A stretch of DNA of 64,000 bases from a virus (IMGVR_UViG_3300037067_011000:10632-74631); one strand, 5' to 3'; shown: positions 10,182-54,829, counted from the stretch's first letter. Notes: generated from the sequence alone by a model not told the origin. A program made the numbers and translations.

Positions 10182-12736
10182 TAAAACTTCTTCTTGGTGA
10201 TAGTGCAGACATTTTAAAGACTTTGGAAGATAATTCTGTTGATTCTGTTGTAAGCGATCCCCCAGCGGGCATCGCCTTCATGGGGCGTTCGTGGGATTCA
10301 GATAAAGGTGGTAGAGATTTATGGATAAAATGGCTTAGTGGTATTTTTGTTGAAGTAAAAAGAGTTTTAAAGCCTGGAGGTCATTGTTTAGTTTGGGCAT
10401 TGCCCAGAACCTCACATTGGACAGGAGTGGCATTGGAAGATGTGGGGTTTGAGGTGAGGGATTGTGTGTATCATGTTTTCGGGTGTTTGTCGGAAGATAC
10501 AGAAATATTAACAATTAATGGGTGGGAACATTACCATAAAAATATTTGTTTATATCCCGTATTGTGTTACCTTTGTGAAGAAAATAGATTTGAATTTCAC
10601 AAACCAACAAAAAAATACTTCTATGAAAACAAATATCCCGCTTACAGAATACAATCAGATCATACAGATCAAATCGTCTCCAGAAATCATCGTGTCCTTG
10701 TTGAACGAAGCGGAAGAAAGGAATTTGTTTTTGCCGAAACATTGGAACAGCAAGAGAACATACCCTTTTTGGAAAGTCTGTCAGATTTGCCAGAAACCCT
10801 TTCCAACATACACGAAGGAAAAAGCATTACGAAACAAGACTTGTTCTATCGTATGCAGAGGCATACAAATATCCAAAGCAAAAAAAGGAGTTTCTCATGG
10901 AAGAACAGCACCTTGGATAAAAGAACCTTGTGCACATTGTGGAAAAATAGTGGAAATGAGGAAGAAACAACGCAAGTACAGCAAAAAGGTATATTGCAGT
11001 TATTCTTGTCGTGCAAAAGAACACTCCAAACACTTACTTCTTTTTTGTTCAAATGGCAAAGGGAAGAAAAATCCCAAAAAGGGCATGAAATTAGAGAAAA
11101 ATCCTGCATGGAAAGGTGGTGTAACATATTTCAAAACACATGGGAATTATGTTGGGGTAAAATATGTCAGATGTCCAATAGAGTATTTATCTATGGCACG
11201 AAAAGATGGGTATGTTATGGAACACCGTCTTATTGTAGCCATGCAGCTTCAACGTCCTTTACTTCGGACGGAAACAGTTCATCACATAGATCACAACCCA
11301 ACGAACAACGATCCTTTAAATCTGATGTTATTCAAAACAAATCAGGAACACAAACTGTACGAGGGACAACAGCGACAGTTACAGAAATAGAATATAAAGG
11401 AAATGTGTGGTGTGTAGAAGTTCCCACAGGAGCTTTTGTTGCTCGAAGAAATGGAAAAATATTTATTACAGGTAATTCTGGCTTTCCGAAAAGTATGAAC
11501 ATTGGGAAAGCTGTGGATGCAATAGGTGGACAATCTTTATCTTGGTTTATAGATTATATTTTAGAAGTTGCTGATGAAAAAGGTATAAGTAGAAAGGAAT
11601 TAACAATGTTATTTCCAAGTAAAAATGGAAATCCTACGGGGTGGTTATGGAATAAACAAAAGACACAAGGGATAACTATTGATCAATTTAATAAAATAAA
11701 AACCTTTTTAAATTTACCATTTGAAAATATAGAAGAAACTAAACGAGAAGTTATAGGAAAAGGAAAAGCAGGTTTAACAGCAGGGAGTATTGCTAACTTT
11801 GCAGGGGAAAAAGAATTTGATTTGACCAAAGGCACTTCTGTATTTGAAGGTTGGGGTACAGCACTTAAACCTGCTGTTGAATGTTGGTGGTTGGTAAGGA
11901 AACCCATAAGTGAAAATACAATAGCAGAAAACGTGTTAAAACATGGTACAGGGGGGTTGAATATTGAAATGTGCAGAATCCCTTTACAAGAAACAGGGGA
12001 AGATTCTCGTTTAGGAGGGAAGGGTACATGGTCAACTGAAAATGCAGGTTGGGTTGTAAGTGGGTCAAAAAGAGAAAGGGTTAGTTCATCAGAAAAAGGC
12101 AGATTTCCAAGTAATCTTATTCATGATGGTTCAGAAGAAGTCCTTTCATATTTCCCAAATGCAGGGGGTCAGCAAGGGGATCTTACAAATCATACAAGGG
12201 TTATAAAATCTCCAAATGGGATTTGTGGAACACAAACCCCACGTTTTGATGCAATAGCAAGAGAAGAAAATGATAAATCAGCAGCAAGATTTTTCTATTG
12301 TTCTAAGCCTTCTCCAAGTGAACGTCAGTTTGGTTGTGGTGAAATAGAAGAAAAGTTTGACAGTCCACGTCCTTGGTGTACAGAAGAAAGTGACAGAGGT
12401 AGAATTGCAACAAGAATGGTTTCCCGTACAGGGAAGAACAACCATCCTACGGTAAAATCCATAAAATTAATGAGTTACCTCTGTAAATTGATCACTCCCA
12501 AAGGCGGGATTATCTTAGATCCTTTCATGGGGAGTGGTAGTACAGGAATTGCTGCAAAAATAAATTCTTTTAGTTTTATTGGAATTGAGAAAGAAGAACC
12601 TTATTTGAAAATTGCAGAAGCAAGAATAAAAGCCCACACAGTTGGAAAAGTAACTGTGCCTAAAGTAAAAAAGGAAAAAGTGTTAAAAGTAGAATCAAGT
12701 AGTGAAACTGTTCAAAATACTTTATTTGAATTATGA
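10178..12736 (+). CDS. N4/N6 DNA methyltransferase (beta class) containing an intein
   Basis: Catalytic DPPA motif near N-terminus; SAM-binding DPFMGSGSTG near C-terminus; HPTVK; FG|SGFPKS restored on intein removal. Confidence 0.9.
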   Translation: MIKLLLGDSADILKTLEDNSVDSVVSDPPAGIAFMGRSWDSDKGGRDLWIKWLSGIFVEVKRVLKPGGHCLVWALPRTSHWTGVALEDVGFEVRDCVYHVFGCLSEDTEILTINGWEHYHKNICLYPVLCYLCEENRFEFHKPTKKYFYENKYPAYRIQSDHTDQIVSRNHRVLVERSGRKEFVFAETLEQQENIPFLESLSDLPETLSNIHEGKSITKQDLFYRMQRHTNIQSKKRSFSWKNSTLDKRTLCTLWKNSGNEEETTQVQQKGILQLFLSCKRTLQTLTSFLFKWQREEKSQKGHEIREKSCMERWCNIFQNTWELCWGKICQMSNRVFIYGTKRWVCYGTPSYCSHAASTSFTSDGNSSSHRSQPNEQRSFKSDVIQNKSGTQTVRGTTATVTEIEYKGNVWCVEVPTGAFVARRNGKIFITGNSGFPKSMNIGKAVDAIGGQSLSWFIDYILEVADEKGISRKELTMLFPSKNGNPTGWLWNKQKTQGITIDQFNKIKTFLNLPFENIEETKREVIGKGKAGLTAGSIANFAGEKEFDLTKGTSVFEGWGTALKPAVECWWLVRKPISENTIAENVLKHGTGGLNIEMCRIPLQETGEDSRLGGKGTWSTENAGWVVSGSKRERVSSSEKGRFPSNLIHDGSEEVLSYFPNAGGQQGDLTNHTRVIKSPNGICGTQTPRFDAIAREENDKSAARFFYCSKPSPSERQFGCGEIEEKFDSPRPWCTEESDRGRIATRMVSRTGKNNHPTVKSIKLMSYLCKLITPKGGIILDPFMGSGSTGIAAKINSFSFIGIEKEEPYLKIAEARIKAHTVGKVTVPKVKKEKVLKVESSSETVQNTLFEL
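10484..11476 (+). mobile_element. intein (331 aa) in DNA methylase
   Basis: Block A CLSEDTEILTINGW; block B IVSRNHRVL; block F VWCVEVPTGAFVARRNG; block G FITGN followed by +1 Ser. Confidence 0.9.
10518..11390 (+). CDS. HNH homing endonuclease nested in the +1 frame of the intein
   Basis: CxxC/CSxxC zinc repeats, NPAWKGG, MEHRLIVA...ETVHHIDHNPTNNDPLNL; start may be 10518 or 10623. Confidence 0.85.
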   Translation: MGGNITIKIFVYIPYCVTFVKKIDLNFTNQQKNTSMKTNIPLTEYNQIIQIKSSPEIIVSLLNEAEERNLFLPKHWNSKRTYPFWKVCQICQKPFPTYTKEKALRNKTCSIVCRGIQISKAKKGVSHGRTAPWIKEPCAHCGKIVEMRKKQRKYSKKVYCSYSCRAKEHSKHLLLFCSNGKGKKNPKKGMKLEKNPAWKGGVTYFKTHGNYVGVKYVRCPIEYLSMARKDGYVMEHRLIVAMQLQRPLLRTETVHHIDHNPTNNDPLNLMLFKTNQEHKLYEGQQRQLQK

Positions 12737-43123: not shown

Positions 43124-43528
43124 TTAAAATCCTCCAAATGATAAACTTGGTGTCAAATATGCTTTTCTTAAAAATCCTTCCCCATCCAAAGAAGGGACTT
43201 TCTGAAATCTTTTTATAATATATGTCCCATCAATGTTCTTTGGGTCTGCTATTGCATCTGCACTACTTTCTGCACTGTCATACAATTCTTCCAATGTACC
43301 ATGATATAAATACCCTTCTACATCCAAATCCTGAAGAACAAATACTAATGCTCTTGAAGTTATTTCTTTTCCCTTATTGTCCGTTACAATCTGACTAATA
43401 TCTTCCCAACGACAGGAAATCTCAATAGCATCATTGAAAGTAAAGAAATTTCTACCATCATTAATTGGATTGCCCCAATAAACTGCTTTATCCAAGCAAT
43501 TATTCTCTATACTTTCCTGTATGCTCAT
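43124..43528 (-). CDS. head closure protein
   Basis: Position and beta-rich composition. Confidence 0.65.
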   Translation of the reverse strand: MSIQESIENNCLDKAVYWGNPINDGRNFFTFNDAIEISCRWEDISQIVTDNKGKEITSRALVFVLQDLDVEGYLYHGTLEELYDSAESSADAIADPKNIDGTYIIKRFQKVPSLDGEGFLRKAYLTPSLSFGGF

Positions 43529-43899
43529 TCATTGAATCCTTTTACAGCGTATATACTCGCTCTCATTTTCCCTGTATTAGCCATCTTCCCTGTTATGTCC
43601 ATCATCAAAACTGCCTGACCATAAGGAGTAGATTCTAATTTAGTTCCATACTTCCCAATATACTTTACAGAAGCATCCCCAAGTTTTTCCTCACTTGACA
43701 TTCTCATAATTGTACTTGCAATGAAATGAGCAGACAACCATGTTTTAATTTCTGCCAATAAAGTGCTTCCAAGTTCATCATCTTCTGAAAACACAGCATC
43801 AGCCACTCCCCCTGCCATAGTAATAAAAGGTAATGCTTGTGCATCTGATAATTGTGCTTCTGTTTTCTTTAATATCAACCGAACATCTGCTGCTGCCAT
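43525..43899 (-). CDS. head-tail connector / adaptor
   Basis: WLSAHFIA...EKLGDASVKY...STPYGQ motif. Confidence 0.7.
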   Translation of the reverse strand: MAAADVRLILKKTEAQLSDAQALPFITMAGGVADAVFSEDDELGSTLLAEIKTWLSAHFIASTIMRMSSEEKLGDASVKYIGKYGTKLESTPYGQAVLMMDITGKMANTGKMRASIYAVKGFNE

Positions 43900-44552
43900 T
43901 ATTTGCTCCTTTCTCTTTGACGACTATTCCACATTAACGGTGTAACCATATCTATTACATCATTGTCCCAAGTTAATCCTGCCCATTCTACCACTTCTTT
44001 TATCTGGTTGTAATCACCCATTGCCATTCTTTCAGGCCAAACTTCCTTACAAACAATCCCTGCCTCAATCATCTCATTGAACAATTTTATATGTTCATGC
44101 ACCCATCCTGTCCATCCTTCTTTATCCTTATAAGCCCTCATATATCCTGTCTTCAAACAAGATTCTACAATATCAGGAGTTCTCCGTCTCACAATAATCC
44201 ATTTAGCATTTGGAAAAGCATATTGCCAAATAGGCCATGTCTGGCAAAGTCTGGAACCTTTTAACATCCAAGGTTCCCCTTTCCATTCTTGTAAACATTC
44301 TTCTGTTTTGGATTTCCAATTTGTTGGTATTATCAATTTCTTTGTATCTGGTAAAGGATATTGTCCTCTTATATCTGCCCCAAGAAGTTCATAATACTTG
44401 TCCATCAATCCTTTAACCTCTATATTCTCTAACATTTCTGTACTCATCCCTGTAAATGCCCCACAATGTTTTATAATCTTGGCAATAATGGTACTTCCTG
44501 AACGTTCTATTCCAGTTATAAAAATTGGGCTATTTACTGCATTTTGTATCAT
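43899..44552 (-). CDS. sulfotransferase family protein
   Basis: PIFITGIERSGST 5'-PSB loop; WMLK; AKWIIVRR 3'-PB motif. Confidence 0.8.
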   Translation of the reverse strand: MIQNAVNSPIFITGIERSGSTIIAKIIKHCGAFTGMSTEMLENIEVKGLMDKYYELLGADIRGQYPLPDTKKLIIPTNWKSKTEECLQEWKGEPWMLKGSRLCQTWPIWQYAFPNAKWIIVRRRTPDIVESCLKTGYMRAYKDKEGWTGWVHEHIKLFNEMIEAGIVCKEVWPERMAMGDYNQIKEVVEWAGLTWDNDVIDMVTPLMWNSRQRERSK

Positions 44553-45859
44553 GATGTCTTTTTATATTTATTCACTACCTGTTTCCTGTTTACAGTTCTT
44601 TTTACCTTATCAACCTTCTTTATCAATTGTTCAGAATGTCTGCGGTAAAAAGCCAAAGAGGAATTACAATATCCTATTTTCATTCCCATCTGTAGACACC
44701 GAACATTAAACTCAAATTCTTCAAAAGACTTAACCTGCTCTGTTTCATTCAATAATCCTACTTTTTGAAATACCTCTTTCCGGTACATTGTTGTTGCACT
44801 ATGAATAGTATTCTTTGCTAACAATTGTTGTAAAGTTGGGAATTTAACTTTTGGTTTCCAAACAATTTTATTTCCCGATACCTGACTGTATTGTATTGCA
44901 TTTCCATGAATAAAATCAACCCCCTGCTCCTCTATTGCTTTTACAGAATCCTCAATACAATTTAGAGTTAGCATATCATCCTCATGGAGATACTTAATAT
45001 AATCCCCTGTGGCTTCATTTAAGACCTTATTAAAATTCTGAGGCCAACTACCATCTCCCTGACTTACGATCAACTGTACACTGTCAGGAACGCTTGCTAT
45101 GGCATCTTTTAAATACCCCCTGTCAATGTTATATGGAATTATAACAGTTACCTTCTTCTTTTCAACAGGTTTTTGAAATACCTCTTGATTAACATACTCT
45201 TTTACCCATTGCAAACTCATGGAAGCATTTGCTGCTTCAAATATTCTTGGTCTACCATGAAAACAAACTAAATTTGCATCCTCAGGGACTTGTTTAAGTA
45301 CCCCTGTTTCTTTTGGTTTAAAATCATATATGGTATTTGTAAGTTGTTGCCAGAACATGTCTGGTTTTACAACCTTACGTAAAAAATAATCCATCCTGCT
45401 ATGCCCTACCCCTTCTTTTTGCCATGCTTTCCAAATAGTACTTATCTTCTCTGAATTGGCAGGAATCCAAGCAAGTCCAGTAGCCAGTTGTCCTTTTTGG
45501 TAGAAATCTTCTAAGGGGATAAACATACTTGGTTCCTTTACCAATTCAAATATATTTTCAAGTGACTTCACAATAACTGTATCCAAGTCAACATAAAGGA
45601 AAGGACGATACTGCTCCATTTCCGGTGAATACAGCATCATCCTACTCCACCACTTTGGATAATCGTTGGACAAGGGTAGAAGTTCCAGGTTACCCAAATC
45701 ATAATATCCTGAGGCATTATCCCAAAGACAAATAATTCTCGGTCTGGTAGAAGATTGCCATTTCCCATTAATGTGTCTTGCAATCAATCCCACATCACGA
45801 AAAGAAAAATCTCCTCCTGAACGTAAAACCACAACAATTGTATGTTTTAAATTAATCAT
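44549..45859 (-). CDS. two-domain glycosyltransferase (GT8-like + GT2)
   Basis: N-domain WWSRM, YVDLD, CFHGRPR; C-domain VTVIIPY, YLHEDD, YRRH. Confidence 0.8.
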   Translation of the reverse strand: MINLKHTIVVVLRSGGDFSFRDVGLIARHINGKWQSSTRPRIICLWDNASGYYDLGNLELLPLSNDYPKWWSRMMLYSPEMEQYRPFLYVDLDTVIVKSLENIFELVKEPSMFIPLEDFYQKGQLATGLAWIPANSEKISTIWKAWQKEGVGHSRMDYFLRKVVKPDMFWQQLTNTIYDFKPKETGVLKQVPEDANLVCFHGRPRIFEAANASMSLQWVKEYVNQEVFQKPVEKKKVTVIIPYNIDRGYLKDAIASVPDSVQLIVSQGDGSWPQNFNKVLNEATGDYIKYLHEDDMLTLNCIEDSVKAIEEQGVDFIHGNAIQYSQVSGNKIVWKPKVKFPTLQQLLAKNTIHSATTMYRKEVFQKVGLLNETEQVKSFEEFEFNVRCLQMGMKIGYCNSSLAFYRRHSEQLIKKVDKVKRTVNRKQVVNKYKKTS

Positions 45860-46689
45860 AATTTACTGATTATTGTTTTAGCACATCCTTCAAATGTAAA
45901 GAACTCTTCATAAATCCTTTTTCCATTATCAATGTACTTTTCAATATCCTCTTTTGTTTTACTTTTAATTATGTTTAAAATATCTGGTATTTGCTTCTCT
46001 GATACAAGTATTCCTATTTCATTGAAATCAAACTTATCCTGAAAAGGAATCCAGGGTTTATCATAAACATAAATTGGAATAGAACCATGTTGTAAGGATT
46101 CACAAATCCTGAATGAAGTTGCACCGTATCCTCTTGGGCACAATGAAAAAATACTCCTTTCCATTCTATTTATAAATAGGTCATAACCCCCATTTTCATG
46201 TATTACAAAATTCTTAAAAAATAAATTTGCTATCTTTCTTCTTATTGGGTGGTTTTTGGTACTTCCTACAAAACTGCACAATACATCCCTATTTTGTTCT
46301 ATTCTTGGACTTGGTTGACACAATAATGGAATAGGAGTACCTAAATTTCTTTCTGATAAAGTCTTCTTCCCCCCACCACCTGCTCCAAATATAAGTATAT
46401 CCAAATCTTTTAAATCCTGCAAAATACCATCATCATATTGGAGGATTGTAAAATACTTTTTACTCCTATCTAATGAATCTAAAAACTTCTGTAAATCCCC
46501 CATAACAACAGTCCCATATTTTCTACTAATATAAAAGTTAGTCCAAAGAATAGGTAGATAGACATATTCTGTCTTAACAGTATTTGTCTTATACCAATTC
46601 ATAAAGTACTCTTCAAATATCATTTTATTGAAAGGTGGATACTCATGATTTGTATGAGTCTGAAATATATTTGGAACCTGCTCTATCAT
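45856..46689 (-). CDS. exostosin-like glycosyltransferase (GT47)
   Basis: SFVG, S.FSLCPRGYG..SFRICESL..GSIPI. Confidence 0.85.
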   Translation of the reverse strand: MIEQVPNIFQTHTNHEYPPFNKMIFEEYFMNWYKTNTVKTEYVYLPILWTNFYISRKYGTVVMGDLQKFLDSLDRSKKYFTILQYDDGILQDLKDLDILIFGAGGGGKKTLSERNLGTPIPLLCQPSPRIEQNRDVLCSFVGSTKNHPIRRKIANLFFKNFVIHENGGYDLFINRMERSIFSLCPRGYGATSFRICESLQHGSIPIYVYDKPWIPFQDKFDFNEIGILVSEKQIPDILNIIKSKTKEDIEKYIDNGKRIYEEFFTFEGCAKTIISKL

Positions 46690-47465
46690 ATCTTCATCTT
46701 TTTATTATAATACCTGTCTGCCCAAGGTAACATCATTGTTCCTGCTGCTAAATGTCTTACAATAATCTCATCAAATGGGCAATATCTTTCTTTCTTTACA
46801 AATCTGGCAACTACCCTATAAGTCTTGTTTGAATCTTTAACCCCATTAAACCCTATATTTGTAAAAAGATTTGTGTCATCAGGATGAAAGGTACAACCCC
46901 AATTTGCAGGTAATATTTTTATATGTTGTTCCAATTCTTCTTTGGTAAAAGGAGTTGTATTTCTTGTTCCCATCATTTTAGGATCTTGCCCCCATTCTAA
47001 ACCAAGTATTTGAAATATTGCATCATTGTCCTGCCAAGTATTCCAGTGAGATAAACCTTTGTTAATTTCCTGTAATTTATCACTGCACATTTCATTAATA
47101 AATCTACGACTCCATTCTGATATTCTAATTGACCATGTTCCCATACAAAGTATCCCTGTGGATTCCTGCACTATTGAAAAATCTGCATCAAATACAGCAG
47201 GAAATCTCCCATCCATAATACAACAATCAATATCCATATAAGTAATCACATCCCCATCATTGAACCTTCCCATATTCTTATTTATCCAGAATATCTTTGC
47301 AAAAGGAATTTCGTAAGGGGCTGCTTCATTTTTTGTAATTTCTACAAATTCAAATCCATGTATCTGACAATATTTAATAAAACGAGGTCTTGTCTTTTTC
47401 TCATAGACAATCCGAACCTTATGGTTTTTTGGGTATGTGCATAATGTGATAAAATACTTTTTCAT
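46686..47465 (-). CDS. GT34-like (GMA12/MNN10-like) glycosyltransferase
   Basis: YCQIHG, AKIFWI, YMDIDCC DxD motif, DNDA. Confidence 0.65.
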   Translation of the reverse strand: MKKYFITLCTYPKNHKVRIVYEKKTRPRFIKYCQIHGFEFVEITKNEAAPYEIPFAKIFWINKNMGRFNDGDVITYMDIDCCIMDGRFPAVFDADFSIVQESTGILCMGTWSIRISEWSRRFINEMCSDKLQEINKGLSHWNTWQDNDAIFQILGLEWGQDPKMMGTRNTTPFTKEELEQHIKILPANWGCTFHPDDTNLFTNIGFNGVKDSNKTYRVVARFVKKERYCPFDEIIVRHLAAGTMMLPWADRYYNKKMKI

Positions 47466-47466
47466 A

Positions 47467-48042
47467 TTACCACTCCATATAAATTAAATGTAAAGGGCCA
47501 CAAACTACTTTTGTATGATGTTGTTTTGCAAACTCATCAATAGCCTTTGTTAAATTTGGATAACTTGGATGATGATAATCATGACAAGAAATTACCCCAC
47601 CTTTTCTGATTAACTGACTATAATTAATCAAGTCCTTTTTAACCTGATCATAAGAATGAAACCCATCAATGAATACAAAATCATATCTTAATTCAGAATC
47701 TAATAATTGAAATGCTGTATCACTTGTCATTTTTAAAAGTTGATACCTTGTGGGAGATAATCTTTTAGCAACCAAATCACATAAACAATCAAAATCTTCC
47801 TGACTTTCTATTCCACTTGGCATTCCCCCATGTTTATAAATCATATAAGGATCAATCCCAATAAGAGAATGCAATTCCGTAGTTCCCAATATCCTTCTTG
47901 CATGCCCTCCTGCAAACACACCTATTTCAATACCTATCTTATACCCTCTCTTACGAATAAGATTTGGAATTACATCATAATATGCTGCAAAATGTTTATC
48001 TGTATCTGCCATAAGGGCAAGCATTCTTTCTTCTCTTGTCAT
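47467..48042 (-). CDS. class I SAM methyltransferase (Methyltransf_24-like)
   Basis: GIEIGVFAGG, GIDPY, DFVFIDG.HSY..V..D, GG..SCHDY. Confidence 0.85.
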   Translation of the reverse strand: MTREERMLALMADTDKHFAAYYDVIPNLIRKRGYKIGIEIGVFAGGHARRILGTTELHSLIGIDPYMIYKHGGMPSGIESQEDFDCLCDLVAKRLSPTRYQLLKMTSDTAFQLLDSELRYDFVFIDGFHSYDQVKKDLINYSQLIRKGGVISCHDYHHPSYPNLTKAIDEFAKQHHTKVVCGPLHLIYMEW

Positions 48043-48758
48043 AATTCTTTTATTTTAGTCTTAATTATATCAAAAACTGAACGTAAGGCTTTTCTGTTGT
48101 TTAAATAATAACTCCCATCATGCACCCTGTGTATATAAGATAATTCAGGAACTATTTTTAATTTGTATCCTTGTAACAACCACAAATAACTAAAATAGAA
48201 TGAATCTAAAGTACTTAATCTTACATCTAAAACAGTTTGTTCAACCACATCTGTATATCTTTGTCTGTTGAAAAAATAATTTCCTGTATTCAACCATGTA
48301 CTGAAAACTGAATTATCTATGTGTTCTTTTACATTTGTTCTATCTATATCCAATGTATTAAATTCTTTATATGTCCAGTTAACCCCTTCCTTATTCAATT
48401 TGTACATTACCTCTGGACAATAAATTGTATCCTTATCCTTTTCTAAATTACTTACTTTTTCAATATAATCATTATCAATAATATTATCACAATCCAATAA
48501 GATACACCATTCATTATTACATTGTTTTACAACTTTGTACTTATTCAAAAATGGACCAATATTTTCTACATTCCGATACAACTTTACTTTATCTGTATTT
48601 AATCCCTGAATAAGATTCCATAGTTTAGCATATTTATTAACATCAGAAAAATCATCCTGTATAATAATTTCACCCACCAAGGCATTACCCAAAACCTGAA
48701 TGAATGACTCAATTGTCATTTCTACCCTATCATAATTTGCAATTGCTAATGAAATCAT
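48039..48758 (-). CDS. GT2-type glycosyltransferase
   Basis: ISLAIANY, IIQDDFS, EN.GPFLNK, LLDCDN. Confidence 0.8.
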   Translation of the reverse strand: MISLAIANYDRVEMTIESFIQVLGNALVGEIIIQDDFSDVNKYAKLWNLIQGLNTDKVKLYRNVENIGPFLNKYKVVKQCNNEWCILLDCDNIIDNDYIEKVSNLEKDKDTIYCPEVMYKLNKEGVNWTYKEFNTLDIDRTNVKEHIDNSVFSTWLNTGNYFFNRQRYTDVVEQTVLDVRLSTLDSFYFSYLWLLQGYKLKIVPELSYIHRVHDGSYYLNNRKALRSVFDIIKTKIKEL

Positions 48759-48759
48759 A

Positions 48760-49380
48760 CTAAGTATATTTTAAATATAAAGCATCACCCCACGACTTTG
48801 GTTTGGCATCTGTGAGTATTCTCACAAACCCAAACTTCCCTAAGAACTTATCTAAATCATCTACAAGAACACACCCTTTGTAAACTTCCTCAAAATTGAC
48901 TTCTGAATAAATAATGTCAATTGTTTTTAATGTTTCTGTTGCTCCTTTAAATACTTCTAATTCATATCCCTGAGTATCAATATTGATCATATTAAACTTT
49001 GTACGATCAAATTCTATATTATCCAATTTATCCATTCTCACAATTTCCTTTTTATCAAACTTGATTTTTGGATATTGTTTCAAATGTATTTTAGGTTCAA
49101 GTATGGAACAACTCTGCCCTTTATTTGCTGTTTCCACAAACATTTCTTTCTCTCCTGTTTCATTTCCAAGAGCAAGTTGACAAATCAAAATGCTACCATC
49201 CACAGGTAAATTTTCTAATAGTTTAATAAAATTGTCATGAATAGGTTCAAAAAAGATCATATTTTTAATCCCCTGCTTTTTGTAATCAAGATATTCCTGT
49301 CCATAGTGTGCCCCAATATGAATAACCCCATTAATTTGAAGATTATAATTGTTTACAATATTTTGCAATTTCATCATCAT
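48760..49380 (-). CDS. FkbM family methyltransferase
   Basis: VIHIGAH.G, FFEP, INIDTQGYELEVFKG; likely start ATG 49380 overlapping the upstream TGA. Confidence 0.88.
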   Translation of the reverse strand: MMMKLQNIVNNYNLQINGVIHIGAHYGQEYLDYKKQGIKNMIFFEPIHDNFIKLLENLPVDGSILICQLALGNETGEKEMFVETANKGQSCSILEPKIHLKQYPKIKFDKKEIVRMDKLDNIEFDRTKFNMINIDTQGYELEVFKGATETLKTIDIIYSEVNFEEVYKGCVLVDDLDKFLGKFGFVRILTDAKPKSWGDALYLKYT

Positions 49381-50153
49381 AATAATTTCCATTCTTTTGG
49401 TAAACAGAACTCTTTCATAAATTTTACCTGATTCTCTTCCTTTGTTCTCCACTGCTTTGGTGCAACAACCACAGAATTTGAATCTTCATTTAATAATGCT
49501 GCCCAAGCACTAAATGTACTGTTGGCAATTATCTTTTGTTTGCAGGATTTTAACAATTCAAAATCAAAATAATCCCCACCCTTTATAAACATCACATTTT
49601 GAAATCTTCTTCCTGTAAAATATTTTTGACACCATTTTATATCATCACTAAAAACAAGAATATCCCCTTTTACATATCTCAAAGCATTCTGATAATATGA
49701 TAATGGTAAAACATTAAAAGCATTGTTTTTTACATAATCCCCTCTTCTGACATGAATCCCCACAGAATTGGTATTAAGAATCTGATTTTTTAATGTAATA
49801 AATTCAGGAATATAAAATTCTTCTTTCACACAAAATTCTTTTCTCAAAATTGGAAGAACATCTTTGTAAATATTGATATACTGCCAATATCCCCAAAAAT
49901 TACAATTGTCTAATTTTGTATATAATGGAGAAAATTCTTTCTCTCTGATTGTTCGTTGATTTAAAAAAGAACTGATTTTAACATCAGTATTGAATTTATT
50001 CAACCTGTATGGCCTTGAATCCTCATCAGCATGAATCTTCACCCTATAAGTCAAATCATATCTTACTTCAATTCCATTGGATTCCATTACTCTTCCAAAA
50101 GCATATTGAAATAATTGATTTCCTAATCCACCATATATCCTGATAACATTCAT
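49377..50153 (-). CDS. alpha-1,2-fucosyltransferase (GT11)
   Basis: GGLGNQLFQYA, GYWQ, HVRRGDY, FSDD..WC, ANSTFS.WAA. Confidence 0.92.
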   Translation of the reverse strand: MNVIRIYGGLGNQLFQYAFGRVMESNGIEVRYDLTYRVKIHADEDSRPYRLNKFNTDVKISSFLNQRTIREKEFSPLYTKLDNCNFWGYWQYINIYKDVLPILRKEFCVKEEFYIPEFITLKNQILNTNSVGIHVRRGDYVKNNAFNVLPLSYYQNALRYVKGDILVFSDDIKWCQKYFTGRRFQNVMFIKGGDYFDFELLKSCKQKIIANSTFSAWAALLNEDSNSVVVAPKQWRTKEENQVKFMKEFCLPKEWKLL

Positions 50154-50881
50154 TCTTTATTAACTTTTTCTTTTTCTAATACATCTTGCACTTCATCTAA
50201 AGACATCTTGGGAAATTCTTTTATGGCACTGTCAGGACATATATTCCAAATAGTAATTCCCCTTCTTTTTGCATCTTTAGCAATATCTGCAAATCCTCTT
50301 AAATGCCTGTCAAATGGTAATGTAATTGGTTTCTTTGAAATCTTGGCAATTATACCCTTTCCATATAAATCATGCCAATGTTGTCTTCTGTCATCACTTA
50401 ATTTCATATCAAACCCAAGTAAAATAATTCTCTTTGCCCCTGCGTTAGCGGCTATGCTGATTGCTGCTGCCCCACTATTCCCATTCCAACTTGTCATTTG
50501 TGGATTGTCACTTATACCCTTTGGATATTTCATATCTCTTGGTGTAAATTTAACCCAATCATATTTCCCCATTTGGGGATGGCAAGAGACTTTTAATCCA
50601 GGGAATTTTGCCAATCCCTGTTGATGTTTTAAAAAGAACCCAATATCTCCAAAGAACACTATGTCAATCCAATCCCCAATCAAATATGCTACATTAATAC
50701 CAATTACGTGTTTGTCATGTAAAAAACTCATATAAGGAGAATAGACGTTGGCAGGGGAAATCCCTTTTATTACACTATCCACAACTTCATCTGGAATCCC
50801 AAACTGTTTTGGTATAGAAGCACCTCCCCCTATAATCCAAACATCTCCCCCTTCCCACATTCGAGGAACCTGCCAAATCAT
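50150..50881 (-). CDS. DUF115/Maf-like (GT29-like fold) transferase
   Basis: VWIIGGGASI, IGIN, NSGAAAI..A...GAKRIILLGFDM. Confidence 0.65.
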   Translation of the reverse strand: MIWQVPRMWEGGDVWIIGGGASIPKQFGIPDEVVDSVIKGISPANVYSPYMSFLHDKHVIGINVAYLIGDWIDIVFFGDIGFFLKHQQGLAKFPGLKVSCHPQMGKYDWVKFTPRDMKYPKGISDNPQMTSWNGNSGAAAISIAANAGAKRIILLGFDMKLSDDRRQHWHDLYGKGIIAKISKKPITLPFDRHLRGFADIAKDAKRRGITIWNICPDSAIKEFPKMSLDEVQDVLEKEKVNKE

Positions 50882-51264
50882 TTTGTTCCTTTTAGTAAGT
50901 CTGCAACCAATGCTTCTGCAACATCTTTCTTGAGTGACTTTTCATTCATCACCTTTCCTGTATTGCTTACAACATCAAACAAAAACAAACTCTTCCCATG
51001 AGGGACTGCCTCAAATGTAGGTTTTGTTATTTCCTTTGGTGTTTCAACATTCTCTTTTTCTTTTGTTGCAAGAGGTAGAAAAGTTGCATCCCCACTTAAA
51101 GGGATAACAAACTTTCTAAATGAAGATGATATTTCCTCTGGATAGGCTTCAAACTTCTCATTTGGTTTGATAATTCTATTCCCTATTCTCAAAGAACCTC
51201 CTCCTATTTTTTGCCATCTTGGTTTTGATTCTACTTTAATGTCTTCACTTTTTGCTCGTTCCAT
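50878..51264 (-). CDS. hypothetical protein downstream of major capsid
   Basis: ORF track; ATGA-coupled to the glycosylation cassette. Confidence 0.65.
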   Translation of the reverse strand: MERAKSEDIKVESKPRWQKIGGGSLRIGNRIIKPNEKFEAYPEEISSSFRKFVIPLSGDATFLPLATKEKENVETPKEITKPTFEAVPHGKSLFLFDVVSNTGKVMNEKSLKKDVAEALVADLLKGTK

Positions 51265-51315
51265 AATTTTATAATCTTTAATTTAAAAAATAATTTCTTG
51301 ATTAGAAATTTTAAC

Positions 51316-52413
51316 TTATGCCAATTTTACTATACCGCACTTGCCATTCTGATCACTACGTATTTGCGGGACCTGAATGCAAAATGCCTTGAATTTCGTA
51401 ACAAAAACACCTTCTTCTTTCCACTGTACATTTGTCAAACCAAGACCATTGACCAAACGAACTACATCAGGAGTCATTTGTACAAGAAGAATTGTATCAT
51501 CTGCAAGAGTATCAATAACTTTAATACCTTTGATAACATCAATTTTCATAATACGATCCTTAATAGTAGTCCCTGGAGTAGTGGTATCATAGTCATCATA
51601 CAGTACAATCCCATATTCTGTAGGAATGTACAACATGAATGGGCCATAATAGTAAGCAGCGTTTGCAGATTTAATCATGTTCAATACATCATTTAAAATA
51701 CCAGCAGCAGTTTTTGCTGAAGCATCCCAATGAGTACCAAGAGTAACAAGATTAATATCAGGAAAATTAATATAACTATAAATCTTATTTCTGCTTCTGT
51801 CATCCACTTCTCCATAACCATAGGTCGTGTCAGTAAAAAGCATATTTTCCAATGTTTCATTAATTGCTCTTGCTGCCATCCTTGCATCAGTTGTATCCAA
51901 TGGATTCCCCATATTACGACTGGTTGCCAATTCCCTTGCATTAATCTCATAATCAACATGAGTTATAGGAATTGGTAAATAATTGTGCTGATAATTAGGA
52001 CGTTGATTTTCCCCTTTTGGAAGTCCATCCATACTAACAACAGCAGTCATCTTACCAGCCACATCATGCCATTCGAGAACAGTTGTTCCCATAGCATTGC
52101 CTAAATTGTAGGTAAGTCCATTTGCTCTCAAATCATCAATACCACCGAGACGGTACATTTTTTCCGCCATTAAAGCAGCATCCAACTGTTTCCACTCATC
52201 CCTACGGAGAGTAGCATTAGATACAAGCTGAAGACCCCAATTTTCCCTTTTTGCAGGATCACCTCCTTTATACATGGAAATATAAGGTCTCCCATCTGTT
52301 CCAATGAACGGACGTTTTGCCCCTGCATTAAATGTTCCATTGTTTTGGAGCATTTTAGCAAAATCTCCTTGGGCATGTCCGTTTGCCATTAAATCTATTT
52401 TTACATCAGGCAT
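51316..52413 (-). CDS. major capsid protein (HK97 fold, linocin/encapsulin-like)
   Basis: 365 aa; TLRRDEWKQLD, LPIPITHVDYEINARELA, ENMLF; follows protease and decoration genes; AGGAGG SD. Confidence 0.85.
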   Translation of the reverse strand: MPDVKIDLMANGHAQGDFAKMLQNNGTFNAGAKRPFIGTDGRPYISMYKGGDPAKRENWGLQLVSNATLRRDEWKQLDAALMAEKMYRLGGIDDLRANGLTYNLGNAMGTTVLEWHDVAGKMTAVVSMDGLPKGENQRPNYQHNYLPIPITHVDYEINARELATSRNMGNPLDTTDARMAARAINETLENMLFTDTTYGYGEVDDRSRNKIYSYINFPDINLVTLGTHWDASAKTAAGILNDVLNMIKSANAAYYYGPFMLYIPTEYGIVLYDDYDTTTPGTTIKDRIMKIDVIKGIKVIDTLADDTILLVQMTPDVVRLVNGLGLTNVQWKEEGVFVTKFKAFCIQVPQIRSDQNGKCGIVKLA

Positions 52414-52441
52414 TTTCTTTTCCTCCTTTTTTCTTTTATAA

Positions 52442-52933
52442 TTACAGTATCATTACTTTTATACGAGGATTATGATATGTCCCCCCTGCACTGGATTCTG
52501 AACCTTCTGGAAGAGTACTCAAATCCACAGCTTCTGTAGCAATACCAATAATGGCATTCTGTACAGAACCAGTAGTTGAATCCCCAGGATCAGCAGCATG
52601 TAACTGTAATCTACCATCCCCATCTGATTCAAGAAATTGTCCAATCGTAATTGTCTGCTCATCTCTCAAAAGGGCATTTACAATATCCCCTCTTCCAGGA
52701 ATCCATACCTGAACCCTGTCAGCAGCAGCATAATCATCATCAATCCCATGTCCCTGAAGAGCATCCTCCACAGCAAACATTATAGGCACTACATTTCCAC
52801 TGGCAGTGGCATGTGCAAGAACCTCATCATCTGAGTTAAATGCAACCAACATCCCAGGAATTATAGTAGCATGTGCTATCTTTTCTATGATAACATCACT
52901 GTACTTTTTTAACTTAATAGTATTTGCAGCCAT
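52442..52933 (-). CDS. capsid decoration / cement protein
   Basis: IIPGMLV...A.ED.LQG.GIDDDYAAADRV...G..VNALL.....I..GQFLESDGDG.L pattern between scaffold and capsid. Confidence 0.7.
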   Translation of the reverse strand: MAANTIKLKKYSDVIIEKIAHATIIPGMLVAFNSDDEVLAHATASGNVVPIMFAVEDALQGHGIDDDYAAADRVQVWIPGRGDIVNALLRDEQTITIGQFLESDGDGRLQLHAADPGDSTTGSVQNAIIGIATEAVDLSTLPEGSESSAGGTYHNPRIKVMIL

Positions 52934-52945
52934 TCCTTTTCCTCC

Positions 52946-53422
52946 TTATTTTTTAACTTCAAATTCAATTCCGGTTGGCAGTAAAATCTCTTCCGTACCT
53001 GCATTAGCATTCATGTTATTTGCATTTAAAGCATAATTCCCTGCTGTTGCACTTTCCTCTTTCACAACAGAATCATACACCCTTTTAATCAGGGCATCTG
53101 TCATAGTTCCAAATCCAGTATCAGGCCACAACTCTTTTGAAGTATTTGCCTGAATCCCCTGAATCATAGCATCCCTTTTTTCTTTTCTCTGCTGTCTTGC
53201 CCAAGCTACATCAGCCTGATCTTCTGCGGAGAGTTTATTAATTTCCACTGTCTTCTCAACGATCTTCTCTTTTTCAATCACCTTTGGAGTAATTGCTTTA
53301 TCAAGAGCCTTTTCGCTAAGGACTTCCAACCATTCCCTATCTGTCTCATCAAAACCAGACTCCTTGTTTGCAAGAAGTTTATTGATTTTTTCGAGGCATT
53401 TTGGGCATTTCTCATTTGCCAT
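52946..53422 (-). CDS. internal in-frame scaffold protein (158 aa)
   Basis: AGGAGG 8 nt upstream of in-frame ATG (Met386, MANEKCPKC). Confidence 0.55.
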   Translation of the reverse strand: MANEKCPKCLEKINKLLANKESGFDETDREWLEVLSEKALDKAITPKVIEKEKIVEKTVEINKLSAEDQADVAWARQQRKEKRDAMIQGIQANTSKELWPDTGFGTMTDALIKRVYDSVVKEESATAGNYALNANNMNANAGTEEILLPTGIEFEVKK

Positions 53423-54577
53423 TTTCGTGTCCTCCTTTTTATTATTAGTATTAACTTTATTTCGTACCCAACCACTGTTGACTACGTATTCCACTTTTTT
53501 GTGGACTTCAATAGGCTCCCCTACAAATTCGATTTTCCCGCTTTCGATTTTATAAGATTGCTTATACATTGAACGATTATTATCACCACTTTTTGAATAA
53601 ATCAAAGAATCGTCATACATTTCTTCCAAATAATGATATATATAATGGTGTTTTCCTTCTGCATCTTCATGTTCAGAATCCAAAGAACGAAGTTTATCAT
53701 AAACCAAATTCATTCTTTCCTGATATCCTTGTTCAGAATTATTTCCTATGGAGGTGAATGAATATCCTTTCTTATTAACTGTCAATAAGAAAAGATTATG
53801 TACTGATATTTCATTCCACTCTTTTTTACTATTTGCTCCTAATCCACATCCATCAGCACAACTACAAGCCCCTATCTGATCTGGAAGTATTGCCAAATGA
53901 TCAGGTCTGTGATTGTGTGCTATTCCAACATATTTTTCACCCTCATAATCCCCCTCTGCCATTTCATTTTCAGTGAACATCCCAAGACTCACTTCTACTT
54001 CCTTTGTAGCATTTATATCCTCCAATGTATTTGCTGAAATGGAATTGAGTTTGTCCTCATCTAACCAAACCTCTGCCTTTAACTTCTTTCCTTCAACAGA
54101 AGTGTTGTAAACACGTCCCACGGTCATTTTATCAATGATGTCAGGGGAATTTGCTGATACGGCATTCCCATCTTCCTCTGGATGATAAATTACAACTGGT
54201 ATCCCATTCCAGGATTCTGGAAATTTACCAAGTTCACTTATCTCATGTAAAAGAGGCCCCTGACTACCATTATGCACCCCCTCCACCATCATCACAACAG
54301 GGATTACCAAATGCGCCTTTTCCTGATGAACAGTAAGTTTTACTTCATAATCCAATACCTGTTTATTCTTGTAAACAGAATATTTTCCTTTACTCTCATT
54401 CACATTCATCACAACTCCATTTGCCTGTTTAATAGCAGATGCAGTGGCTTCCTCCTCTGTCTTGCCTGCTTTCATTTCTTTTTTTCTTACAGATTCAGCG
54501 ATTCGACTCCACTGCTTTTTTCCTTTTTCACTAAGTCCTTTTTTATGTTTTTCGGCATCTTCCGGTTTAAATGGCAT
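52946..54577 (-). CDS. DUF2213-like prohead protease / scaffold fusion
   Basis: WNGIPVVIYHP, EVSLG, HLAILP...GACS...GCG; helical C-terminal scaffold. Confidence 0.75.
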   Translation of the reverse strand: MPFKPEDAEKHKKGLSEKGKKQWSRIAESVRKKEMKAGKTEEEATASAIKQANGVVMNVNESKGKYSVYKNKQVLDYEVKLTVHQEKAHLVIPVVMMVEGVHNGSQGPLLHEISELGKFPESWNGIPVVIYHPEEDGNAVSANSPDIIDKMTVGRVYNTSVEGKKLKAEVWLDEDKLNSISANTLEDINATKEVEVSLGMFTENEMAEGDYEGEKYVGIAHNHRPDHLAILPDQIGACSCADGCGLGANSKKEWNEISVHNLFLLTVNKKGYSFTSIGNNSEQGYQERMNLVYDKLRSLDSEHEDAEGKHHYIYHYLEEMYDDSLIYSKSGDNNRSMYKQSYKIESGKIEFVGEPIEVHKKVEYVVNSGWVRNKVNTNNKKEDTKMANEKCPKCLEKINKLLANKESGFDETDREWLEVLSEKALDKAITPKVIEKEKIVEKTVEINKLSAEDQADVAWARQQRKEKRDAMIQGIQANTSKELWPDTGFGTMTDALIKRVYDSVVKEESATAGNYALNANNMNANAGTEEILLPTGIEFEVKK

Positions 54578-54595
54578 CTTAATTCCCTCCTATTT

Positions 54596-54829
54596 TTAAA
54601 TTCTATTTGTCATCTTTTGAGTTATTCTTCTACCACACTCTTTACAATTATAAATATACATTCTTGCTCTCCTGTTTGTTAAATGTTTCATGTTTTCCCA
54701 TTTCAACCCAACCAACCTGATACAATGTCTGCAATACACATAATTGTCAGTATGAATCCCTCCTACCACAGGATTTGATTCCGTAGGAGTCAATGTTGGA
54801 AAACTTGAATATGTTACTTCTGAACCCAT
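54596..54829 (-). CDS. small Zn-finger protein
   Basis: CRHC...CKEC. Confidence 0.55.
   Translation of the reverse strand: MGSEVTYSSFPTLTPTESNPVVGGIHTDNYVYCRHCIRLVGLKWENMKHLTNRRARMYIYNCKECGRRITQKMTNRI

Follow-up and report, generated by a model that had tools for sequence, protein, structure and literature searches.

A capsid-adjacent gene island with a conserved sialyltransferase-fold enzyme, predicted to modify virion proteins in a lineage of uncultured phages

Nine overlap-coupled genes lying inside the late head operon of an uncultured tailed phage, together with a small gene (orf128) in front of them, are predicted to form an island that modifies virion proteins with donors from the host. 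We put the probability of this reading at about 0.6. The first gene of the island, g1, holds a fixed place behind the major capsid protein (MCP) gene, the last, g9, is mostly kept, and the genes between them change from relative to relative. The window (the whole stretch of 64,000 nucleotides that was analysed) belongs to a 74.6-kb genome and has been found in landfill and groundwater metagenomes; no RNA run holding the stretch was found.

Organization of the island

Gene order on the upstream side is terminase, portal, MuF, a 543-aa protein, head decoration protein, MCP, orf128 and then the cassette, and on the downstream side c124/c134/c193/c141, major tail protein, chaperone and tape measure. 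The features, in the order of transcription, are as follows.

52442..52933, minus strand: head decoration protein, 163 aa (phrog_766, 1.6e-11)
51316..52413, minus strand: MCP, 365 aa, anchoring the island upstream (phrog_771, 4.6e-17; phrog_264)
50878..51264, minus strand: orf128, small phage-only protein (4-nt overlap with g1)
50150..50881, minus strand: g1, predicted transferase of 243 aa with mini-Maf/sialyltransferase fold (phrog_4603 "alpha-2,3-sialyltransferase", 4.4e-26)
49377..50153, minus strand: g2, GT11, fucosyltransferase family (PF01531, 1.9e-24, 86.9 bits; phrog_2644, 2e-37)
48760..49380, minus strand: g3, FkbM-family SAM methyltransferase (PF05050, 4.5e-16; TIGR01444, 2.2e-14)
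48039..48758, minus strand: g4, GT2 glycosyltransferase (PF00535, 5.5e-10)
47467..48042, minus strand: g5, Methyltransf_24 SAM methyltransferase (PF13578, 5.3e-13)
46686..47465, minus strand: g6, GT34-like nucleotide-sugar transferase (PF05637, 24.3 bits, cut-off 23)
45856..46689, minus strand: g7, GT47 exostosin-like glycosyltransferase (PF03016, 5.3e-16; RXYLT1_C, 5e-5)
44549..45859, minus strand: g8, glycosyltransferase of two domains, a weakly GT8-like GT-A at the N-terminus and GT2 at the C-terminus
43899..44552, minus strand: g9, PAPS-type sulfotransferase, TPST-like (PF13469, Sulfotransfer_3, 29.3 bits, cut-off 27)
43525..43899, minus strand: c124, first gene of the neck/connector region, downstream anchor (this place right behind the island is conserved in 44 loci)

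A check of ORFs and junctions agrees with the original prediction that a run of nine consecutive coupled ORFs (50881-43899, minus strand) lies between the capsid gene plus one ORF and the neck genes. Overlaps of 4 nt are found at orf128/g1, g1/g2, g4/g5, g6/g7, g7/g8 and g8/g9, and also at g2/g3 provided that g3 starts at ATG 49380, which is likelier than the GTG at 49452, a start that would overlap g2 by 76 nt. The g3/g4 and g5/g6 pairs are separated by 1-nt gaps, and g9/c124 overlap by 1 nt. The gene next to the cassette had been called a head-tail connector; for c124 this holds by position only, its PHROG match being solely to a family of unknown function, and the connector and Neck1 matches belong to c141 and c193.

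All nine enzyme families named earlier were matched by Pfam/PHROG profiles, g1 through phrog_4603. The GT11 match of g2 stands far above its cut-off of 23.9 bits and covers profile positions 156-294, and the GT34 assignment of g6 is supported by GT34 clusters in the ESM Atlas (0.97, TM 0.64-0.69). In g8, residues 7-219 match a glycosyltransferase family (phrog_1962, 1e-24) and residues 259-367 match PF00535 (3.4e-8), with GT8 (PF01501) reached only at E 0.025. No transmembrane segment was found in the island enzymes, as had been stated, the highest Kyte-Doolittle 19-residue window being 1.73.

The small orf128 has no Pfam, PHROG or NCBIfam match and is found in most related loci. Its N-terminal module of ~45 aa recurs within multidomain cassette enzymes of relatives, as in the BLASTP matches to L026 (residues 5-67, 9e-13) and L019 (residues 799-842, 3e-10). 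orf128 is proposed to serve the system as an adaptor or in targeting.

An invariant first gene and a hypervariable middle

The original prediction had proposed a synteny survey of MCP-adjacent clusters, and such a survey places g1 61-1309 bp downstream of MCP in 103/103 related loci with an MCP match, some of which have an MCP as little as 28% identical to that of the window. The identity of g1 follows that of MCP with a Spearman coefficient of 0.69 (n=102), the values for decoration protein and portal being 0.75 and 0.73. Within the head module, g1 belongs to the core genes and is inherited vertically.

From g1 to g9, by contrast, the intervening genes are replaced rapidly among relatives. 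The middle of the island ranges from nothing to >8 kb: g1 stands alone in L015, L035, L122 and L124, and is accompanied only by a sulfotransferase in L048-50 and L114. g9 is the usual last island gene, present in 32 of 44 loci. Against L002, where MCP is 90% identical, g2 reaches only 54% and g4 61%, two extra genes are inserted, and the head decoration protein is 59% identical. When 121 island ORFs were surveyed, 41 families were found, and the 25 of these that were listed comprise only glycosyl-, methyl-, sulfo- and pyruvyl-transferases, radical-SAM and MptE-like proteins. The nine enzymes, which had been treated as equals, are better described as an invariant core gene followed by a hypervariable slot.

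Phages whose MCP belongs to another family also have relatives of g1, which lie between the genes for MCP and head-tail adaptor in L041, behind MCP in L036, immediately upstream of the major tail protein in L037 and upstream of tail proteins in L038. The island is absent from MaInes, a distant cultured relative, in which MCP and a small ORF are followed by the connectors. The window MCP is 30% identical to annotated MCPs of Brevundimonas phages. A Bacteroidota host, as suggested originally, is not borne out, since relatives are binned into MAGs of >10 phyla and strong GGAGG ribosome sites precede the genes of abundant virion proteins.

The virion is favoured as the target because the island lies inside the late head operon with g1 fixed behind MCP, and because in unrelated phages the g1 relatives are neighbours of major capsid or tail genes. 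As the first enzyme is kept here, the last is mostly kept and the genes between them change, the island most likely decorates the particle. Cytoplasmic decoration of the virion, as first proposed, is partly supported, in that soluble enzymes, a genome with no exporter and no integrase match, the late head operon and the synteny of g1 favour a virion target. It is conceivable that the position in the head operon serves late timing only, and that the substrate is a cytoplasmic protein of host or phage or a soluble glycoconjugate; the only substrate, or a carrier, could even be orf128. We regard this as very improbable, because timing alone hardly explains why g1 relatives repeatedly adjoin different major virion subunits in unrelated phages, and because the decoration protein, like the island genes, diverges fast.

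The core enzyme g1 and the question of a host target

The AF2 model of g1 (pLDDT 90.6) is a single domain. Its best fold match is Maf (5mu5, residues 261-510; Z 14.4, rmsd 3.3, 186 aligned; Foldseek TM 0.53), followed by Cst-I (Z 10.5) and Cst-II (Foldseek E 1e-4), and no significant match with the Cst enzymes was obtained by sequence comparison. As modelled, g1 has the fold that Cst sialyltransferases share with the catalytic domain of the flagellin O-glycosyltransferases of the Maf type. The MptE-like Pfam profile (PF01973) gives 16.8 bits for g1, under the gathering cut-off of 34.6; a precomputed match to it exists in a few g1 homologues, and 6 of the 121 island ORFs match at E<=1e-4. Some relatives carry g1 as a fusion with GT8+MT24 or with a methyltransferase. 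A search of the INPHARED phage collection with g1 gave one uncultured record as the only match.

Maf enzymes consist of three domains, including an N-terminal Rossmann-like and a C-terminal helical one, and O-glycosylate surface-exposed Ser/Thr with no sequon needed; the enzyme of Clostridium botulinum, CbMaf, can take CMP-Kdo as donor (PMC11339370). Like Maf of Magnetospirillum (5mu5) and CbMaf, g1 adjoins the gene for an abundant, self-assembling surface protein. It differs in its length (243 aa against ~630 aa), in aligning to the central Maf_flag10 domain only, with the N- and C-terminal domains missing, and in its neighbours, which are capsid and neck genes in a phage that has neither flagellin nor nonulosonic-acid synthesis genes. 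Both the Pfam score under the cut-off and the missing flanking domains were counted against a virion target.

The Cst enzymes of Campylobacter (GT42) have the fold of g1, and the phrog_4603 label agrees with them, while their acceptor is lipooligosaccharide (LOS), not protein. Since these second-best fold matches sialylate LOS, the fold alone permits a host-glycolipid target. The island enzymes might accordingly work at the inner membrane face on precursors of LPS/LOS core, O-antigen, capsule or S-layer glycan and so remodel the host envelope, whereby superinfection would be blocked or progeny particles kept from sticking to cell debris. Soluble glycosyltransferases can also work on undecaprenyl-linked intermediates at the membrane face, which counts against a virion target. 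Furthermore, GT2, GT8 and GT11 are typical of O-antigen loci, the hypervariability resembles that of such loci, and for the GT-rich variable structural regions of marine pelagimyophages the published view favours modification of the host O-chain (PMC7029224).

Envelope remodelling is nevertheless unlikely in our judgement. The genome has no multi-pass membrane protein and thus no flippase, polymerase or GtrA/B-type component, which extends to 74.6 kb what had been stated for flippase, Wzy and GtrA in the window, and it has no integrase match (PF00589). The fixed spot in the late head operon, the co-divergence of g1 with head genes and the g1 relatives beside major tail or capsid genes of unrelated phages all argue against it, and in a lytic infection an envelope change that is expressed late would hardly get to the surface in time. 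A Gtr or Wzx/Wzy-type seroconversion module was rejected: its membrane components and the temperate mark (PF00589) are absent from the genome.

The sulfotransferase g9

The last enzyme (217 aa; AF2 model pLDDT 91.5) keeps invariant TG..RSG and R..D...SC motifs, with T13, G14, R17, S18, G19, R123, D127 and C132 invariant and S131 nearly so. Judging from these residues, both cofactor motifs (5'-PSB and 3'-PB) are intact and g9 is a sulfotransferase of the PAPS type. Its top three fold matches are protein-tyrosine sulfotransferases (TPSTs; Z 15.8, 15.6 and 15.3), the next family following at 13.9 and heparan-sulfate sulfotransferases at 10.7-11.2, and the best PDB match of the family profile is TPST1, over the full length at a marginal E of 0.006. 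As in TPST1/2 (5wri, 3ap3, 8w5z), the arginine-type 5'-phosphosulfate loop (RSG[ST][ST]) and the 3'-phosphate motif are kept; g9 differs in being shorter, soluble and without Golgi anchor, and it may sulfate a sugar.

Because TPSTs are nearest in fold and profile, the sulfate may go onto protein instead of glycan. Direct action on acidic Tyr sites of virion proteins, a variant of virion modification for this one step, is a tentative possibility that we hold to be the weaker one. Candidate sites exist (YDDYD in MCP, ELYDSAESS in c134), and two-gene islands of g1 and g9 occur without extender glycosyltransferases; however, the Z margin is only about 2, and an island with g9 but no g1 was never seen. 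The TPST ranking may mirror family membership and not substrate, since TPSTs are among the few solved PF13469 members. Tyrosine sulfation is very rare in bacteria (RaxST), which also counts against it.

A possible pathway on the virion

In the proposed pathway, the island would be expressed together with the late head genes, and g1 would prime, in the cytoplasm, by placing a first sugar on exposed Ser/Thr loops of abundant virion proteins after their synthesis. Its donor is probably a CMP-activated ulosonic acid (for instance Kdo or a nonulosonic acid) from the host pool, host origin being assumed because the genome has no CMP-ulosonic acid synthetase. The best candidate acceptors are the acidic Ser-rich C-terminal loop of the decoration protein (LPEGSESSAGG), whose position is kept and sequence varies in an alignment of 14 homologues, and, from a loop alignment, the MCP loop YDDYDTTTPGTT; neck or tail proteins may be further targets. 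orf128 may serve as the docking part that brings the enzymes to their target. The variable glycosyltransferases (GT11, GT2, GT34-like, GT47 and GT-A+GT2) would lengthen the first sugar with host NDP-sugars, the two methyltransferases (g3, g5) would cap the glycan, and g9 would sulfate it or tyrosines directly. GDP-fucose for g2 would likewise be host-supplied, the donor being read from the family of the enzyme. A glycan that is "branched, fucosylated, O-methylated, sulfated", as first described, is a reading of family names only.

The earlier claim that the window has no nucleotide-sugar or base-hydroxylase genes extends to the whole 74.6-kb genome for PF02348 (CMP-sugar) and PF01370 (SDR sugar-nucleotide), hence no fucose synthesis genes, and for PF00303 (ThyA-like hydroxymethylase), the last with a working control; the search for TET/JBP (PF12851) gave no match, but its positive control was silent too. 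These searches bear on DNA hypermodification, in which the glycan would be built on a modified base of phage DNA during packaging. The island does adjoin packaging and head genes, g5 matches PHROG families labelled DNA methyltransferase, and DNA glucosyltransferases are the classic phage glycosyltransferases. Nevertheless, with no ThyA-like hydroxymethylase in the genome, no TET/JBP match in the search whose control was silent, and Maf and Cst-fold enzymes acting on proteins or glycolipids, DNA as acceptor is extremely unlikely. We also know of no use of GT11, GT34, GT47, FkbM or sulfotransferase families in DNA glycosylation.

Comparison with known systems

Virion glycosylation is known from mycobacteriophages, namely Che8, Corndog/cluster O and Myrna (Freeman et al., 2023, via PMC11600133, PMC12619734). 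There, capsid and tail-tube subunits of the phage are modified in the cytoplasm by its own soluble glycosyltransferases together with an O-methyltransferase, and shielding of the particle surface is the proposed role (PMC11600133, PMC12619734). Phage-encoded soluble glycosyltransferases with a methyltransferase are common to both systems. The mycobacteriophage system has three tandem glycosyltransferases and one O-methyltransferase (PMC11600133), compared with seven glycosyltransferase domains, two methyltransferases and a sulfotransferase here, so that the island is, as originally claimed, the more elaborate one as far as the available literature goes. Further differences are the invariant enzyme with Maf/sialyltransferase fold, the hypervariable slot from MCP to neck and the large uncultured lineage.

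Chloroviruses (PBCV-1) similarly encode cytoplasmic glycosyltransferases and methyltransferases by which their major capsid protein receives a complex glycan, and structural neighbours of g6 in the ESM Atlas include GT34+Methyltransf_24 fusions of giant viruses. They differ in being viruses of eukaryotic algae, with N-linked glycans and genes scattered in the genome; to our knowledge, a sulfotransferase core is not part of chlorovirus capsid glycosylation.

O-antigen/seroconversion loci and the "host recognition clusters" of marine myophages (PMC7029224, PMC12801897) also combine hypervariable GT2, GT8 and GT11 with tailoring genes in or near structural regions. Membrane export or host LPS targets either belong to those loci or enter into their interpretation, whereas the present island has no membrane components, a fixed slot beside the capsid gene and a conserved core enzyme. 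If the island indeed modifies virion proteins, the particle surface would be strain-specific and under diversifying selection.

Gene content and organization of the island

The virus record, 74,631 bp in length, is rated complete by CheckV. The window covers its bases 10632-74631. ORF calling fills positions 50881-43899 of the window with nine minus-strand ORFs in a row (g1 to g9). Neighbouring ORFs overlap by 4 nt or are separated by a single nucleotide, and g9 shares 1 nt with the gene that follows. For g3, the listed GTG start would give a 76-nt overlap with g2, and therefore the ATG at 49380 is the likelier start. The surrounding operon is a siphovirus-type structural module in the order terminase, portal, MuF, a 543-aa protein, head decoration protein, major capsid protein (MCP), the small gene orf128 and the island, followed by four neck-region genes, major tail protein, chaperone and tape measure. 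The original prediction had recognized the island and named its enzyme families, all of which were borne out by Pfam, PHROGs, NCBIfam and ESM Atlas:

Window 50881-43899, minus strand: nine-gene island, in the order g1 to g9
g1: phrog_4603 "alpha-2,3-sialyltransferase" (4e-26); MptE-like under its cut-off
g2: GT11 (1.9e-24)
g3: FkbM
g4: GT2
g5: Methyltransf_24
g6: GT34-like (24.3 bits vs cut-off 23; Atlas support 0.97)
g7: GT47
g8: N-terminal GT-A (phrog_1962, 1e-24; GT8 weakly) and C-terminal GT2
g9: Sulfotransfer_3 (29.3 bits vs cut-off 27)

Among the island proteins, NCBIfam names g3 alone, with weak g8 matches besides, and a PDB search with the N-terminal domain of g8 gave no match. No 19-residue hydrophobic window exceeds 1.73 in any island protein, and PADLOC found no defence-family match for orf128 and the nine island proteins.

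Family searches gave no assignment for orf128. Its first ~45 residues are RWQKIGGGSLRIGNRIIKPNEKFEAY..., and this N-terminal module is also found at the N-terminus of a 1072-aa GT8-MT24 enzyme in the related locus L026 (9e-13) and inside a 1084-aa enzyme in another, L019 (3e-10). Because the module recurs in island enzymes and the gene overlaps g1 by 4 nt, orf128 is counted as part of the system, in which it might perhaps act as a docking module.

A fixed slot with a variable middle

Scans of IMG/VR and GTDB genomes yielded 106 loci in which a g1 relative accompanies this MCP or neck family. The g1 start lies 61-1309 bp past the MCP gene (median 488) in every locus with an MCP match (103/103). 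In the 44 loci that reach c124, the first neck-region gene beyond g9, the distance from the g1 start to the c124 start ranges from 757 bp to 8379 bp with a median of 3.6 kb, and therefore the window island (6982 bp) is large, not exceptional; in ~30 more loci, c124 was undetected in at least 5 kb of downstream sequence. The smallest islands have only g1 (L015/16, L035, L122 and L124) or g1 and the sulfotransferase (L048-50 and L114). Of the 44 loci, 32 have the sulfotransferase, and in those examined individually at gene level it immediately precedes c124. The longest island seen, that of L027 (8379 bp), has a tandem g1 pair at 8974-9621 and 10001-10696, 33% and then 40% identical to the window g1.

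Identity of g1 to the window correlates with that of the MCP (Spearman 0.69, n = 102, descriptive only as the loci are mutually related); the corresponding values for other head genes are 0.75 (decoration) and 0.73 (portal). Since g1 identity tracks MCP identity in this way, g1 is regarded as a long-standing member of the head module that has been passed on vertically. Between g1 and g9 the genes turn over fast. For example, L002 has an MCP 90% identical to that of the window while its g2 and g4 are 54% and 61% identical, and it has extra insertions of a cytidylyltransferase and an unknown gene; L003 is devoid of g6. In L003, a close relative whose MCP is 81% identical, a GIY-YIG/NUMOD3 homing endonuclease gene (L003:10449-11318) has inserted between the MCP gene and orf128. 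The distant cultured relative Brevundimonas phage MaInes, with an MCP of 30% identity, is free of an island: its MCP gene is followed by a small ORF, which bears no similarity to orf128, and then by neck genes. DNA near-identical to the window was not found in cultured phages.

A Pfam census covered 121 island ORFs from 18 loci, and 25 of the 41 families found were listed. These comprise sulfo-, methyl- (including sugar C-methyl-), glycosyl- (GT2, GT4, GT8, GT11, GT32 and GT47) and pyruvyl-transferases, radical-SAM and MptE-like families; no transporter or sugar-nucleotide synthase is among the 25. The radical-SAM enzymes in relatives' islands (L030:11328-12380, L030:13465-15033 and L007:6938-8188), one with a SPASM domain and one fused to a methyltransferase, hint at reactions other than the transfer of glycosyl, methyl and sulfate groups, which might act on the peptide.

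The first and the last enzymes

An AlphaFold model of g1, built with 32 homologues, has a pLDDT of 90.6. Its best fold match is the central domain of 5mu5, a Maf flagellin glycosyltransferase from Magnetospirillum (Z 14.4, 186 residues), followed by Campylobacter Cst-I (Z 10.5), archaeal MptE (Z 10.2) and animal sialyltransferases (Z 7.4-8.2), and Foldseek concurs. H170 and D158 are invariant residues of g1. The g1 sequence has no significant match in the PDB, either as a single sequence or as a profile. The tie of g1 to Maf and Cst is one of predicted fold only, and g1 corresponds to the Maf catalytic domain with no other domain attached. Maf enzymes transfer nonulosonic acids from CMP donors, by O-linkage, onto exposed Ser/Thr of flagellin with no need of a sequon, and the Clostridium botulinum enzyme also takes CMP-Neu5Ac and CMP-Kdo (PMC11339370).

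The g1 family contains 6339 clusters at 50% identity (E<=1e-3), and at least 562 IMG/VR loci have a g1 relative. In many members it forms the N-terminal part of a longer fusion protein (430-1215 aa); those inspected in relatives are joined to GT8 and MT24 (L014) or to a methyltransferase (L010). In phages with another MCP family (phrog_10), g1 relatives again adjoin major virion subunits. Relatives lie between the MCP and the head-tail adaptor (L041), past the MCP (L036), immediately ahead of the major tail gene in a prophage (L037) and ahead of tail proteins (L038). This repeated adjacency to virion subunits is the strongest argument that the g1 family acts on virion proteins.

In g9, the PAPS-binding motifs TG..RSG[ST][ST] and VRR..D...SC are kept in 15 homologues. 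The best matches of its model (pLDDT 91.5) are tyrosylprotein sulfotransferases (TPSTs; Z 15.8, 15.6 and 15.3), ahead of olefin-synthase sulfotransferase (13.9), mycobacterial Stf9 (12.4) and Stf1 (11.9) and heparan-sulfate enzymes (10.7-11.2). The family profile places TPST1 on top in the PDB, full length, at E 0.006; a pentatricopeptide-repeat match from a single-sequence PDB search was rejected as an artefact. From this TPST-like ranking, a sulfated glycan is not the sole reading, and it is a realistic alternative that g9 sulfates tyrosines of virion proteins directly, with YDDYD in the MCP and ELYDS in c134 as candidate sites; the two-gene islands of g1 and g9 are compatible with either. 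Elsewhere, the genome that has this PAPS-dependent sulfotransferase also encodes a PP-loop protein of the PAPS-reductase family:

G000:C1:1041-1877 (whole-genome coordinates), minus strand, ~8.8 kb before the window start; locus L045: PP-loop protein, PF01507 (5e-27)

Target of the island

The original prediction proposed that a cytoplasmic pathway decorates the virion with a branched, fucosylated, O-methylated and sulfated glycan made from host precursors. The island itself was confirmed, and this interpretation is supported in part: we put the probability that the virion is the target at about 0.6, and the chemistry of the products is entirely inferred. Neither a CMP-ulosonic acid synthetase nor an SDR sugar-nucleotide enzyme was found in the genome, and without these donor-synthesis genes all sugar donors must therefore be derived from the host. 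In a narrower scheme, which we consider improbable, the island's conserved core would be a pair of protein-modifying enzymes. As a single-domain mini-Maf, g1 would attach, by O-linkage, a ulosonic acid activated with CMP (Kdo drawn from host LPS synthesis, for example) to Ser/Thr on the capsid surface and g9 would O-sulfate virion tyrosines, the middle genes serving for elaboration only. If true, tyrosine sulfation encoded by a phage and Maf-type glycosylation away from flagella would both be firsts, and hundreds of uncultured phages would have them.

Remodelling of the host envelope, the standard reading of marine myophage GT clusters (PMC7029224), is an allowed function with which the Cst-type fold of g1 is compatible. 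Evidence against it comes from a genome having no multi-pass membrane protein and no integrase match, from the absence of transporter families from the 25 listed (of 41) in the island census, and from the fixed slot within the head operon. A hydrophobic ORF at G000 5659-6144 was rejected as a membrane protein, being an off-frame reading, resembling an eight-segment membrane protein, of the following gene:

G000:C1:5538-6470, plus strand, outside the window: pentapeptide-repeat protein with ~35 ASLN[DR/G]-type repeats

DNA hypermodification is unlikely. The genome has no ThyA-like enzyme, and we know of no use of the island enzyme families on DNA; a TET/JBP search of the genome gave no match, with its control search equally silent.

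For a virion target, several acceptors may be proposed from sequence. Decoration-protein homologues have a C-terminal acidic, Ser-rich loop constant in position and variable in sequence (LPEGSESSAGG in the window). Relatives that have large islands retain the YDDYDTTTPGTT loop of the MCP, and its counterpart in MaInes is KDYKT-QSD. D/E-x-SS-G/A-like strings are also found in the neck proteins c134 and c141 and in a distal tail protein; the SS dipeptide is no commoner in minus-strand proteins, where the structural genes lie, than in plus-strand ones (4.2 vs 4.6 per 1000 aa). These loops and the acidic-Ser "sequon" are candidates, as leads only.

Expression signals and host

Strong GGAGG ribosome-binding sites are located upstream of the abundant head genes as follows:

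Window 52413-52440: MCP gene
Window 52933-52960: decoration protein gene
Window 54577-54600: 543-aa protein gene

orf128 and all nine island genes have no strong GGAGG site and depend on overlap coupling, a pattern that fits low, catalytic expression of enzymes. A scan of 41-58 kb for promoters and terminators gave no excess over shuffles, and an AT-rich hairpin with an AAUCA loop and a U-run in the gap between the MCP stop and orf128 (window 51265-51318, minus strand) is weak (-3.6 kcal/mol, z -0.2) and alone no evidence of a terminator. Co-transcription therefore finds its support in gene packing only. No RNA run is among the sequencing runs listed as containing the stretch.

These runs include landfill and groundwater metagenomes. 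Relatives are binned in MAGs labelled with more than 10 phyla (five Bacteroidota), which points to mis-binning rather than to a host, and the GGAGG sites sit oddly with a Bacteroidota host. g1-bearing structural modules are also present inside L031 (CP070742.1, the "chromosome" of a 3.74-Mb Zixibacteria MAG) and L037 (a 3.68-Mb Rhodospirillaceae contig); these may be prophages or assembly chimeras and could help to identify hosts for some of the family.

Relation to known systems and implications

In mycobacteriophages, capsid and tail-tube glycosylation involves up to three GTs and an O-methyltransferase (PMC11600133, PMC12619734), and, in the accounts covered, a few mycobacteriophages are the only phages with experimentally shown particle glycosylation. 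Literature searches on DUF115/Maf in phages, glycosylated phage capsids and structural-module sulfotransferases found neither this lineage nor a phage head operon with Maf-fold or sulfotransferase genes described. We rate the island as belonging with phage virion glycosylation, the new elements being the Maf-fold core, the usually terminal TPST-like sulfotransferase and the hypervariable middle. With its conserved g1, its usual last-gene sulfotransferase and this middle, it resembles an O-antigen locus within a capsid operon. Such an organization implies that the particle surface is under strong diversifying selection, with shielding, adhesion and decoy avoidance as possible causes. For glyco-engineering, the 243-aa Maf catalytic domain and the 217-aa soluble TPST-like sulfotransferase are testable enzymes. 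The island would extend particle glycosylation to a very large uncultured lineage, bring in priming by another chemistry, akin to that of flagellin glycosylation or of sialyltransferases, and add sulfation to the modifications of phage particles.
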